Part shown: one piece after another, positions 41,748 through 52,468 of the stretch
Layout of the letters: every line of letters starts with the position of its first letter
How positions within the stretch are numbered: position 1 is the stretch's first letter
DNA from: Bacteroidota bacterium
GTDB taxonomy: Bacteria; Bacteroidota; Bacteroidia; Chitinophagales; CAMDFR01
Reading direction: 5' to 3'
Assembly: GCA_037130135.1 (NCBI GenBank)
Contig: JBAXTO010000001.1
Span: 147,813-211,812 of the forward strand
DNA length: 64,000 nt
The notes under the pieces: model-generated
What the model was told of the DNA's origin: nothing
Seen by the model: only the letters and a program-made list of their open reading frames with translations
The model's database searches: none
Position numbers and translations under genes: made by a program

Positions 41748-42425
41748 TTATTTAGGTAGTGAATTGTTTAAAATAAAACCAAAAGCCTTTTCTAATGTCT
41801 TTTCTCCAATTCCATCATAATTTGCTAAAGCAATCATTGAATTTGCTTCTCCGTTTTGGATAATCTCAGATATTTTTCTTGCGTATTGAGGTTGTATGCC
41901 TGTTTCTATTTTAATTGTCTTTTCGTCTAATGATAACCATTTTGCTTTAAAAGAAGCAAACAAATCGTCTTGAGCATTTGGATCATAGTCATAAATTTCA
42001 ATATCAATTGAGCATTTATTCAAATACTGGTCCATTAGTAATCTAACTTCGTTTGTGTCTAAACCACCATTGTGTGTTCCAAGTAAAGGAAAAGCAATTG
42101 AAGTAATTCCTTTTATTTCGTAAGTATCTACAAACTTTTGTAACCCTTGTTCAATCCACTCCATCTTACTTGGATATTTCCAATGAAACTTTGTTGGAAA
42201 ACTTAAAATCCAAGGAGCATTTTCTTGTTTTGTATAAAGCCACAAAGAACCGGTTTTTATTAGTTTTTTATTACAATAGTCTTTGTATTCTTCATACATT
42301 TTTGGATAGCGAAGTCTATGCACAAAAGCAATTCCTTTACCCATTACACCAACACAATTTACTGTGTTTACAATGGTTTGACACTTACTATTAAATATAT
42401 TCCCTTTTATGTGCTTTACTGCCAT
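41748..42425 (-). CDS. Macrodomain ADP-ribosylglycohydrolase, DarG-like antitoxin
   Basis: GNIF, VNTVNCVGVMGKGIA, SFPTK.HW, SIAFP.LG..NGGL; C-terminal HhH-like GIGEKT. Confidence 0.85.
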   Translation of the reverse strand: MAVKHIKGNIFNSKCQTIVNTVNCVGVMGKGIAFVHRLRYPKMYEEYKDYCNKKLIKTGSLWLYTKQENAPWILSFPTKFHWKYPSKMEWIEQGLQKFVDTYEIKGITSIAFPLLGTHNGGLDTNEVRLLMDQYLNKCSIDIEIYDYDPNAQDDLFASFKAKWLSLDEKTIKIETGIQPQYARKISEIIQNGEANSMIALANYDGIGEKTLEKAFGFILNNSLPK

Positions 42426-42471
42426 TTTATTTCTCTATAATGTTATACAAATTTATAATTGAACATTGATT

Positions 42472-50383: not shown

Positions 50384-50398
50384 AAAAGCAATTATATT

Positions 50399-52468
50399 TT
50401 ATAGAAACCAAAGATTATTCTTACCAAAATCAGATAAGTGTTCATTCTCAAAGTGGGGATACATTTCTGCTACCATTTCGGGGTAGAGGGTAGTAACTGG
50501 TAAACTTTGTTGGCTGATGCTTTTCCAATACATTCGGCTGAACTGATACACTTGATCCATCAAATCTTTTACTACAGCAATATCATCAAATACTTCCGGG
50601 TGGGTACTTGATATATGCAGCTTGATTGGGAAATGATACTCTTTATTTCTTACTGGACTATTTGCTGCATAACGTGTGTTGTTGCATAGTAGATAATCTC
50701 TTTTTCCTATTTGCAAAATAGTGCCGCTTAATGGCATTAAGTTTTTTGGGTCTTTAATATCAAATGCCAATAACTCCTTGCTTTCAGTTTTGTTGATTGA
50801 AACTACTATTACAGGAATGTCCAATTCTAAATGATGTAACACATCCAAGATTGGTTCTAATTCCTGCTCCGACATTTTCTTGTAGAAATGAATGATTAGC
50901 CTTTTTGCATCTTTCTTTTGCTCCACATACGTTGTAACAGCATTGCGAATGCTTCCTGCCAACATCAACGTTTCATCTGCACCGAAACAGTCAAAGCCTT
51001 CAAATATGCCTTCGTTATTAAAGCAGAAAGCAGAACCCACGTATTTGGTTTTGTTGCTGTGGCTGTAAAATGCACCAACCCCAACAATCAACTCATTGAC
51101 TGTTGAACAATTTAAACGCCAGGGAACACCGCCCAGCTTTGCTAACAATGCAATTTCAATATTGGGTAAGTACAAATTAAAATCTTCTCTTGCTAAGTTT
51201 TGATTGAAAATAACCTGTGAGCTGATGTCGTGTTTTATGAGGATTTCTTTTACCTTATAGTAAACATTTAGCAGGTCGGTGTTTTCTTCTGTTTTGGCAA
51301 TTGGGCTAATGTAAATGGCCACATATTGCGTATTAGGTGTTCTTACCGTATTCTTTATAGCAGCATCAACCTCAGCAACAATATTTGATTTGTCTTGTAT
51401 TTCGATATTGCTTGCAATGTCTAAAAGCAGAGGTTGTTTGATGTAAGTGTAGATGTCTGGAAATGCTCTGTATTCTTGCCCTTCATCATTCTTTTTGAAA
51501 AACCCTTTGTTGAAATATCGGTAAATGTTTGCAACTGCTATGGCTTTGTCTTCGGGATGGTAAATGAAAAAGAATTTTACATTATTGTGCGGTGATTTTT
51601 TATATGGACCATTTTTCATACCTGCCAATGGATTGATGGAAAGTGTGTTTTTGCCAAATAACAATTCGTTAGAATTGTGTTTGGTTCTAAAAGTTTGGTC
51701 TTCATTTACTTTCCAAAAGCCATCATTGCTTAATGGTATAATGCTTTTAAAGCCTTTGGTATTTAAAACAGTATTGTAAAAAGCATTTATAAAACCTAAA
51801 TACTTTGGATAGCGGTTGCTGAAATCGGGTTTGTCGAATGGTATTTCAAATTCCCTTTTTAGTTGATTATTGAGTAACGGAAATATTTTATCTAAATCTT
51901 GCTTTTCTTCTGGTGGCATATTTCTCCAACGGAATAGCTTGCCATTGCTGTTAACCCAAGTAATTTTATCGGTGTCTATGTTGCCAATGTCTTGCATTGA
52001 TTTGGCATACAGTTTTGCTGTGCCATCATAAGACACTACTAATTCAAATGTATTTGATACCCTTGCATACTGCACTTTAAGGGTGAATTTGTTGTATAGA
52101 TTAAACTTTGTGGTGCTTTTGTTTTTATCGTGTTGCCATACTTCTACATCATTTACAAAATTTGGAAACAACACATCTACTTTGTCTTGCAAATAATTAT
52201 AGATAAGAAAACGGAAGTAATGCAAACCGAAATTAGTGTTCTTCTTTATATCTACTGTGGCTGTATAATCAGCATTTTCTGTAGTAGAAAAGTTGCAGTA
52301 CAGGTGGCTAATTTCTTTTAACTCACTTTCATATTGCTCCCATAATTCTTTTGGATATTCGCCTTTATGCAAAGAGGCGTAGCCTTCAGTTTTTTCTTTG
52401 AATAAACCTACTTCCAACTTTGTAACAGTTGGTGAAAATGGGATGATATTTAATTGAATCTCTTGCAT
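50399..52468 (-). CDS. Long prokaryotic Argonaute (MID-PIWI), catalytic tetrad degenerate
   Basis: MID motif YYKVK..SSQVI..LAKLGGVPWRL; PIWI LIVGVGA, IIHFYK, FSRMYWKS..LPVTTLYP; ATG 52468. Confidence 0.88.
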   Translation of the reverse strand: MQEIQLNIIPFSPTVTKLEVGLFKEKTEGYASLHKGEYPKELWEQYESELKEISHLYCNFSTTENADYTATVDIKKNTNFGLHYFRFLIYNYLQDKVDVLFPNFVNDVEVWQHDKNKSTTKFNLYNKFTLKVQYARVSNTFELVVSYDGTAKLYAKSMQDIGNIDTDKITWVNSNGKLFRWRNMPPEEKQDLDKIFPLLNNQLKREFEIPFDKPDFSNRYPKYLGFINAFYNTVLNTKGFKSIIPLSNDGFWKVNEDQTFRTKHNSNELLFGKNTLSINPLAGMKNGPYKKSPHNNVKFFFIYHPEDKAIAVANIYRYFNKGFFKKNDEGQEYRAFPDIYTYIKQPLLLDIASNIEIQDKSNIVAEVDAAIKNTVRTPNTQYVAIYISPIAKTEENTDLLNVYYKVKEILIKHDISSQVIFNQNLAREDFNLYLPNIEIALLAKLGGVPWRLNCSTVNELIVGVGAFYSHSNKTKYVGSAFCFNNEGIFEGFDCFGADETLMLAGSIRNAVTTYVEQKKDAKRLIIHFYKKMSEQELEPILDVLHHLELDIPVIVVSINKTESKELLAFDIKDPKNLMPLSGTILQIGKRDYLLCNNTRYAANSPVRNKEYHFPIKLHISSTHPEVFDDIAVVKDLMDQVYQFSRMYWKSISQQSLPVTTLYPEMVAEMYPHFENEHLSDFGKNNLWFL

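Follow-up and report, generated by a model that had tools for sequence, protein, structure and literature searches.

A conserved helicase, giant DarT and macrodomain cassette that is probably independent of the adjacent Argonaute gene in a Bacteroidota defence island

A helicase-bearing relative of the DarTG toxin-antidote systems, DarHTG (Liu-DS3), was described in Escherichia coli in 2026 (Nucleic Acids Res). According to the accessible part of that article, it consists of a UvrD-like helicase, a DarT and an ARH-like protein, DarG3, and its anti-phage defence needs the DarT active site as well as the ATP-binding residues of the helicase (PMC13069673). The subject of the present analysis is a trio of genes with the same three-part composition, i.e. 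helicase, DarT and a predicted ADP-ribose-removing antidote. It lies in a stretch of 64,000 nucleotides from a Bacteroidota bacterium (GenBank assembly GCA_037130135.1, contig JBAXTO010000001.1, positions 147,813 to 211,812), referred to below as the window, where it follows a gene coding for a prokaryotic Argonaute (pAgo). By analogy, the requirement data available for DarHTG support the general logic proposed below for the trio. As far as published descriptions can be compared, the DarHTG helicase is UvrD-like and lacks a 2B domain, whereas that of the trio is an Upf1-like superfamily 1B (SF1B) helicase with a 550-residue N-terminal extension. The antidotes differ as well, DarG3 being ARH-like and that of the trio a DarG-type macrodomain. 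The trio is further set apart by a giant DarT of 1473 residues, with a predicted docking domain, a Trp-rich solenoid and a beta-sandwich.

Canonical DarTG systems (Thermus, Mycobacterium tuberculosis, E. coli) share with the trio the DarT fold and motifs, the DarG macrodomain and the adjacency of the two genes. Their DarT is a single domain of about 200-230 residues coded in a two-gene operon, whereas the giant DarT is about seven times larger and comprises at least four regions. In the trio a helicase gene is added, overlapping the DarT gene by 8 bp. Canonical DarG also possesses a DarT-binding C-terminal half that is missing from the trio antidote, which matches the DarG model of PADLOC (6e-54) over positions 2-150 of 329 only; PADLOC results are given throughout as matches to its hidden Markov models. 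The second relevant family is type I Mokosh, which, in the available part of its description, pairs the helicase MkoA (COG1112, with a Ser/Thr kinase domain) with the PLD nuclease MkoB (Millman et al., bioRxiv 10.1101/2022.05.11.491447). As in the trio, an Upf1-like COG1112 helicase gene is followed by a separate effector gene, and the MkoA match of the trio helicase, confined to the helicase core, reaches 2.7e-93. Systems of Mokosh type I even occupy the place of the trio after pAgo in two sister loci (L035 and L020). Compared with Mokosh as so described, the trio has no kinase domain detected by Pfam, a DarT instead of a PLD nuclease and an additional antidote gene; neither MkoB nor PLD gave a PADLOC match in the giant DarT or its first 270 residues, even at E <= 1.

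In the pAgo-effector systems SPARTA and SPARSA, long-B BPAN, BPAS and BPAM, and DdmDE, pAgo and partner are, as a rule, found together. The window resembles them in that a putatively inactive pAgo stands beside helicase and toxic effector genes, but this co-occurrence fails here: the trio accompanies pAgo in one locus of 80, and pAgo is missing from 30 of the 33 trio loci with enough upstream sequence. Helicases of UvrD-type and DEAD-box orthogroups were reported near pAgos generally in a survey whose main text holds no term beginning with ADP-ribos- or macro- (Ryazansky et al., PMC6299218). At the level of titles and abstract openings, the literature describes no pAgo-DarT or Upf1-like helicase-DarT system, although supplementary operon lists could hold one. 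The trio is widespread (215 clusters at 90% identity, 173 metagenome stretches) and undescribed in the literature searched. It joins two defence themes, Mokosh-type helicase-effector pairs and DarTG.

The first-pass annotation of this DNA had read pAgo, helicase, DarT and macrodomain as one candidate new defence system. A pAgo with a DNA ADP-ribosyltransferase effector would, if true, be a new class of Argonaute immunity. The comparison of loci divides this proposal: helicase, DarT and macrodomain hold together as one conserved module, and pAgo does not hold to them. We estimate at roughly 0.7 the probability that the trio works autonomously, as a DarTG variant tethered to a helicase, with the pAgo as an independent neighbour. 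The pAgo is then probably no component of the system, and the claim of an Argonaute acting through DNA ADP-ribosylation is not to be carried forward as it stands.

The cohesion of the trio was examined from the side of the giant DarT. Among 173 confirmed metagenome stretches the best 80 were kept, giving 79 loci. In essentially every locus that is long enough, a helicase gene lies directly upstream of the DarT gene and a macrodomain gene downstream of it; all three were called in 59 of the 79 loci, the others being mostly cut contigs or macrodomain fusions, and the helicase open reading frame (ORF) was called in 71. The order helicase-DarT-macrodomain is kept in nearly all complete loci while DarT identity falls from 98% to 25%, and the spacing between helicase and DarT genes in the listed loci ranges from -41 to +18 bp. 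Helicase, giant DarT and macrodomain are one conserved module. Away from pAgo, its surroundings are varied (SIR2, NERD, UvrD-like, PDC-S68, type I restriction-modification). Fourteen contigs begin 39-632 bp upstream of the helicase, which fits a cassette that occurs in several different settings in the same sample. Homologues of the giant DarT are frequent among Bacteroidota sequences, with sources including Chryseobacterium, Chitinophaga, Pedobacter and Saprospiraceae, yet only 3 of the 401 genomes sampled, that of the window included, have one.

Stand-alone cassettes of the clade of the window also possess a conserved non-coding leader of about 110 nt just upstream of the helicase gene (L093:173-322, L094:6430-6579, L089:161-310 and nine further loci). 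It contains a hairpin, TTTGGTTTTGC...GCAAAACCAAA, with 10 predicted pairs, four of which show compensatory changes. The leader is not a known RNA, since no Rfam family was matched at gathering thresholds in the window and four trio loci.

The association with pAgo was then considered from both sides. The pAgo family comprises 474 clusters (E <= 1e-3) and 556 confirmed stretches when each species is represented by a single genome; the best 80 of these stretches served as loci. When these were searched with the proteins of the window (tblastn), the trio was present in one of the 80 (L029), so that the four-gene order, whose recurrence the first-pass annotation had proposed to test, is rare in this sample. 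Close pAgo homologues are rarely found beside the helicase and DarT pair, a pattern that the same annotation had named beforehand as speaking against its proposal. Among trio loci, 57 have a full-length helicase and 33 of these at least 2.1 kb of upstream sequence; in 30 of the 33 there is no pAgo. The three others are L086, 98% identical to the window, and L157, where the pAgo is adjacent, and L147, where it is 3.9 kb off behind PDC-S68. One further trio adjoins a pAgo on the short contig L151.

The closest pAgos point in the same direction. Those of L001, L002 and L003, 96-99% identical to that of the window, have no trio, and other genes lie downstream in L002 and L003. At the DNA level the window is homologous to L002 (92%) over the type 1 BREX genes, PDC-S18 and pAgo, up to 4 bp past the pAgo stop codon, and homology with L003 and L001 (96%) is limited to the pAgo ORF alone (52466-50392). 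With L020 (76%), homology resumes just after the macrodomain gene, from 41736 to 40309; between pAgo and this right-hand block, L020 contains a different cassette made of an MkoA-like helicase, an unknown gene and a PLD gene. Judged from these breakpoints, pAgo is a separate unit the size of one gene, and between it and a conserved block of small genes there is an exchangeable slot, occupied here by the trio.

An obligate four-gene system, in which pAgo senses, the helicase unwinds, DarT modifies and the macrodomain protects, none of them working alone, would account for the operon-like spacing in the window. The ORF list bears out the arrangement given in the first-pass annotation, with four minus-strand genes coding for pAgo, superfamily 1 helicase, giant DarT and macrodomain separated by 15, -8 and 46 bp, and the four-gene order exists also in L086, L029, L151 and L157. 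Upstream of pAgo on the same strand, however, PDC-S18 and then type 1 BREX follow with gaps of 14-17 bp; tight co-oriented spacing is therefore a trait of the whole island and no evidence for a four-gene operon. Given that the arrangement is found in one of 80 pAgo loci and at most three of 33 trio loci, that homology breaks exactly at the borders of the pAgo gene and that near-identical pAgos have other partners or none, an obligate system is very improbable.

In the giant DarT, an N-terminal domain of about 100 residues is followed by a Trp-rich alpha-solenoid of 26-residue repeats reaching to about residue 1160, the DarT domain (1173-1376) and a beta-sandwich. The DarT domain is matched by Pfam (7.9e-16, profile positions 1-190 of 201) and by PADLOC (DarT, 1.4e-07), and its fold by the Foldseek hits to Thermus DarT 7omw (E 8.8e-07, TMt 0.69) and to 7yk3. 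The segments IYHFSHIDN and FYFRP align to Thermus DarT. The QQEFLV motif pointed out in the first-pass annotation is present and invariant in 11 of 11 aligned homologues, and QQEF in 36 of 36; its Glu is presumably the catalytic residue, as we take it to be in DarT enzymes. The Trp repeat is equally real, with 17 WxW motifs mostly spaced by 26 residues or multiples of it and a Trp content of 3.9% for the whole protein. An AlphaFold2 (AF2) model of residues 274-1473 (alignment of 36 sequences, predicted local distance difference test (pLDDT) 86) shows a long solenoid of short helix pairs leading to the DarT fold and the C-terminal beta-sandwich. Foldseek gave no significant PDB match for the solenoid. 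It would be a new Trp-rich module of about 900 residues that may act as a sensor. Many giant DarT homologues (1700-2200 residues; L087, L089, L136, L147, L123) carry an extra 230-650 residues after the DarT domain; Pfam searches of the C-terminal extensions of these longer homologues and of small neighbouring ORFs gave an HD domain in L123 and no other family.

The macrodomain protein is matched by Pfam Macro (4.2e-13) and by the DarG macrodomains of Thermus and M. tuberculosis in the PDB (5m31, 9.2e-29; 5m3i, 2.5e-27), with an aligned FPTK(F/K)HW stretch. Residues 175-218 resemble HHH_3 below threshold (20.4 bits for a cut-off of 27). The protein is predicted to be the enzymatic antidote. In some loci the macrodomain is fused to an N-terminal region of about 240 residues (L124, 452 residues). 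A PIN_4 gene of about 390 residues comes after the macrodomain gene in 9 of 79 trio loci and is absent from the window; the other seven members of its 16-member cluster are macro-bearing proteins of about 450 residues that come directly after DarT.

The Upf1/DNA2-like character assigned earlier to the helicase is confirmed by PDB sequence matches to Upf1, IGHMBP2, Sen1 and DNA2, by Pfam AAA_11 (5e-36) and AAA_12 (2e-37), and by the AF2 model (pLDDT 83.5), for which Foldseek returned IGHMBP2, SETX and Upf1 (E 4e-26 to 1e-22). The helicase core spans about residues 600-1165, and its Walker A GPPGTGKS (G625-S632) and DEAS (D822/E823) motifs are invariant in 33 of 33 homologues. The PADLOC MkoA match relates residues 812-1154 to model positions 788-1103 of 1112. 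The N-terminal 550 residues or so are alpha/beta modules with no assigned family, and no Pfam kinase family was matched at E <= 0.01, by contrast with the helicase of L035 (Pkinase, 2.5e-21). The helicase of the window aligns end to end (1-1165, 63-69% identity) with those of cassettes lacking pAgo and thus shows no pAgo-specific adaptation.

The N-terminal domain of the giant DarT would provide the link between helicase and effector. Residues 8-109 are shared with the gene that comes after a related helicase in L024 (717 residues with a C-terminal PIN_4, E 2e-05) and in L021 (615 residues, E 5e-08); in L024 a PIN effector stands in the place of DarT. A profile of this domain found 239 representatives at 50% identity (E <= 1e-3). 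Of the 150 listed, all except some five have it at the N-terminus or close to it; 56 reach 1400 residues or more, 41 have 560-999 residues and 42, probably fragments, have fewer than 300. Within the same 150, PIN_4 is present in 28 of the 41 mid-length members and OST-HTH/LOTUS in four. Entries of the partner family include proteins P0245-P0392, L024:15777-17930 and L133:9290-10462. An Upf1-like helicase with a PIN_4 nuclease is reminiscent of eukaryotic Upf1 with SMG6-type PIN proteins.

By sequence pattern, the N-terminal domain is similar to a winged helix-turn-helix (wHTH). ESM Atlas searches with DarT residues 1-270 gave unnamed clusters of 436-1017 residues at 0.91-0.94 and a wHTH at 0.77, which are leads only, and PADLOC gave zero matches at E <= 1 for these residues and for the partner N-termini of L024, L029 and L136. 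Homology to the N-terminus of MkoB was considered and is not established (hhalign against the MkoB of L035: E 0.03, probability 1.7%).

Since the partners share the N-terminal domain and the helicases share residues from about 500 to 1165, helicase 496-1165 and DarT 1-270 were chosen for co-folding, as the first-pass annotation had suggested for this pair. An interface is predicted with an interface score (ipSAE) of 0.76, to be compared with 0.01 for the best control; contacts agree at 98% or more between runs and the pLDDT of the partner is at least 79. Of 80 solved complexes 58 attain the mark used to read such scores, as do 2 of 110 pairs of mismatched proteins; these counts apply only approximately, since our own alignments were used. 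Predicted contacts join DarT residues 34-74, inside the shared domain, with helicase residues 647-765, which form a helical insert of the first RecA-like domain. In the model, the N-terminal domain would thereby dock the giant DarT on the helical insert. We know of no solved complex of this kind. PIN nucleases apparently use the same docking domain, and the modelled interface is testable. The trio can be described as a helicase-effector pair of Mokosh-like build in which DarT is the effector and the macrodomain the antidote.

A mechanism may be proposed on this basis for the autonomous cassette. The Upf1-like SF1B helicase would carry the giant DarT through the docked N-terminal domain, load on single-stranded nucleic acid of the phage, or else on intermediates of replication or transcription, and translocate with ATP. 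The tethered DarT would so be brought to exposed single-stranded DNA (ssDNA) and could ADP-ribosylate it, leading to a block of phage replication or to cell arrest. The free macrodomain protein, possibly targeted to DNA by a helix-hairpin-helix, would clear stray ADP-ribose from host DNA, so that protection would operate by enzymatic reversal and not by toxin binding.

The same toxin-antidote pair, recognised by homology, could serve another end. The trio might be mainly an addiction module that stabilises a mobile element rather than an anti-phage system, the two roles not being mutually exclusive. It lies in an accessory island, related loci adjoin mobile-element genes such as the DUF3987/BT4734-like primase-type gene, and no DNA match to the helicase, DarT or macrodomain genes was found in the 30 genomes of relatives searched, four of them of the same genus. 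The trio is nevertheless consistently placed amid known defence genes (BREX, PDC-S18, PDC-S68, SIR2, type I restriction-modification), and a helicase of 1165 residues with a solenoid of about 1000 residues is hard to explain in a simple addiction module. The Mokosh architecture (Millman et al., 10.1101/2022.05.11.491447) and the anti-phage validation of the helicase-bearing DarHTG, in the accessible part of its report (PMC13069673), also argue for defence. Addiction as the main role is thus quite improbable.

Several points weigh against an autonomous trio with the pAgo as mere neighbour. In the window, L029, L151 and L157, the trio begins 15-30 bp after pAgo and the conserved leader is missing; because of this absence and of the 15-bp gap, the trio of the window would be co-transcribed with pAgo or expressed from a promoter inside it. 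The trio is associated with three pAgo lineages, that of the window, that of L029 and L157 (about 50% pAgo identity) and that of L147 (about 41%, with PDC-S68 between). Upf1-like helicases as a class are moreover over-represented downstream of pAgo, their cassettes being unusually frequent right after members of three pAgo subclades. A helicase-core profile was run on the 80 pAgo loci, and among the 59 informative ones, i.e. with at least 4 kb downstream, 11 have such a helicase within four genes, as the next gene in six, the second in two and the fourth in three. None was found in the 613 kb upstream of pAgo in the 80 loci, and no extra one in the 459 kb of flanks of the 79 trio loci. Finally, the score of the helicase-DarT complex expresses the confidence of a model and is not a measurement, and defence, ADP-ribosylation and helicase activity are read from sequences and models.

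The cassettes behind this excess are of at least seven kinds. Besides the trio (L029), there are a helicase with a PIN_4 partner (L024), a helicase with a 615-residue partner (L021, L039), a true type I Mokosh (L035:12116-17066; kinase-helicase and MkoB, 1.6e-28), an MkoA-like helicase with an unknown gene and a PLD gene (L020:12166-18849, L002), a kinase-like gene with an MkoA-like helicase (L003, L010), and a TmtA (Tiamat)-like gene with a short MkoA-like helicase (L032:12098-19097, L038). Where a helicase directly follows pAgo the gap is 15-37 bp, except in L020 (87 bp), and the cassette leader is missing. In the pAgo tree, 14 rows have a helicase cassette (window, L086, L147 and L157 included) and 46 informative rows have none; the trait requires at least eight changes and appears in four separate places.

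These data could be accounted for by a facultative pAgo front end, i.e. a pAgo clade cooperating with interchangeable Upf1-like helicase-effector cassettes (DarT, PIN, PLD/Mokosh) that can also act alone. The pAgo might use a guide to tag DNA or RNA of an invader for the helicase, or receive guides made by the helicase-nuclease. In its favour are the downstream excess and its absence from the two control regions, the four places on the tree, the short gaps without leader, and the fact that all informative members of the 96-99% pAgo clade (window/L086, L002, L003) have an MkoA-like system within four genes, different in each. Yet pAgos 98-99% identical occur with and without a cassette (L024 compared with L025; L035 with L047; L032 with L033, L037 and L044). 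Helicases adjoining pAgos of one clade (pAgo identity 92% or more) have only 35-40% identity with one another, even beside 94%-identical pAgos, and some loci have none. This pattern of helicase presence is one of repeated cassette replacement at a hotspot. The link is also hard to reconcile with the 30 trio loci of 33 without pAgo and with helicases that have no pAgo-specific domain. The slot accepts unrelated cassettes as well, and a recombination hotspot shared on one mobile-element family would give the same enrichment. The search for pAgo fused into a longer protein found none, which is weak evidence. The controls are themselves imperfect, since restriction-modification genes and the element backbone fill the upstream flank and two like systems seldom share an island, and the MkoA model is too unspecific for a clean background rate: a family search tried for this purpose and discarded gave matches, mostly to helicases of about 640 residues, in 265 of the 401 genomes of Bacteroidota and in 10 of the 14 control genomes. 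A facultative front end is unlikely on balance.

In its widest form, three pAgo subclades would be facultative, guide-dependent partners of interchangeable Upf1-like cassettes, a prokaryotic counterpart of eukaryotic Argonaute/PIWI proteins acting with MOV10/Armitage-type helicases and an associated nuclease, which we hold to be doubtful. If such pairing were true, the window would be the first case with DNA ADP-ribosylation as output. The excess of Upf1-like cassettes right after pAgo is in any event a lead on bacterial Argonaute cooperation with Upf1/MOV10-like helicases. Returning to the slot itself, PDC-S68 is another of its occupants after pAgo (L157:15411-19217) and flanks the trio in L105, L147, L154 and L157. 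PADLOC gave mostly no matches on the frequent non-helicase cassettes downstream of pAgo.

The pAgo, an independent neighbour in the preferred reading, is 689 residues long if the ATG at 52468 is used, as are its homologues. It is matched by Pfam Piwi (4.2e-16) and over its full length by PADLOC PDLC02385 (3.8e-254); its closest solved relatives are AfPiwi, EcAgo and RsAgo, for the MID-PIWI part only. The residues of YKQK type (Y404, K408, Q419, K445) do not vary among 16 aligned family members, from which the 5'-end pocket of the MID domain is predicted to be intact. The same 16 invariably have VGVGA on the strand that bears the first catalytic Asp in active Argonautes, and HFYK at the RDG-type position; that these positions correspond to catalytic sites in active Argonautes is assumed. 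Long-B pAgos, which are catalytically inactive, have a PIWI domain without the DEDX tetrad and a MID 5'-end pocket; with its PIWI domain, its YKQK-type residues and no Asp at two presumed catalytic positions, the present pAgo is a candidate for this type and putatively inactive, as described earlier. Within the conserved C-terminal NLWFL-stop, an ATG is found 13 nt ahead of the gene end (50399-50415 in the window, and many other loci). Downstream ORFs thus seem to overlap pAgo by 13 nt in many loci, which may be an artefact of ORF calling or translational coupling.

Table 1. Features of the window discussed in the text, with positions counted from its first nucleotide
Feature	Position	Strand	Remarks
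Solitary long pAgo	50399..52471	-	690 aa from TTG; Pfam Piwi, PADLOC pAgo
SF1B Upf1/MkoA-like helicase	46886..50383	-	1165 aa; Pfam AAA_11/AAA_12, PADLOC MkoA
Giant DarT effector	42472..46893	-	1473 aa; Pfam DarT, residues 1173-1376
DarG-type macrodomain protein	41748..42425	-	225 aa; PADLOC DarG, Pfam Macro
Exchangeable cassette slot, here filled by the trio	41737..50394	-	DNA homology breakpoints with L002 (50395) and L020 (41736)
PDC-S18 candidate defence gene (DUF5655 and nuclease-like N-terminus)	52486..53391	-	PADLOC PDC-S18 5.5e-139; Pfam DUF5655
Type 1 BREX: BrxL, PglZ, PglX, BrxC (BrxC cut by the end of the window)	53408..63998	-	PADLOC

The wider island is shown in Table 1. The BREX genes are matched by PADLOC at 8e-281 (BrxL), 1.5e-299 (PglZ) and E = 0 (PglX and BrxC), and BREX is also present in L002 at about 92% DNA identity. 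Relatives of PDC-S18 are directly upstream of pAgo in 6 of the best 80 pAgo loci and nearby in three more; PDC-S18 could be a recurrent partner or merely a recurrent neighbour. Related pAgo loci often have a DUF3987/BT4734-like gene (40 ORFs in 80 loci), a type I restriction-modification HsdR and an upstream M78-peptidase gene, as would suit the cargo part of a mobile element of integrative type. The region would probably consist of two independent defence modules, the solitary pAgo and the autonomous trio, lying side by side among the cargo genes of an island gained by horizontal transfer. In the genome G424, of the same order, a 169-bp match to the 3' end of the pAgo gene was found, probably a pAgo relative.

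A consensus scan of positions 40500-54000 gave 37 promoter-like sites for 54 expected from shuffled sequence and 8 terminator-like sites for 7.7 expected. This result is uninformative, and the sigma-70 consensus is in any case unsuited to Bacteroidota. The right flank past the macrodomain gene, which forms the conserved edge of the slot, is C/A-rich and of higher GC, with small ORFs and a DUF6943 gene (40027-40638). It contains two exact repeats, one of 27 nt (about 40667-40693 and 39906-39932) and one of 25 nt (about 40586-40610 and 39853-39877). Just outside the island are genes coding for NA37, a 37-kDa nucleoid-associated protein (36482-37519), and for a staphylococcal-nuclease-like protein (38210-38725).

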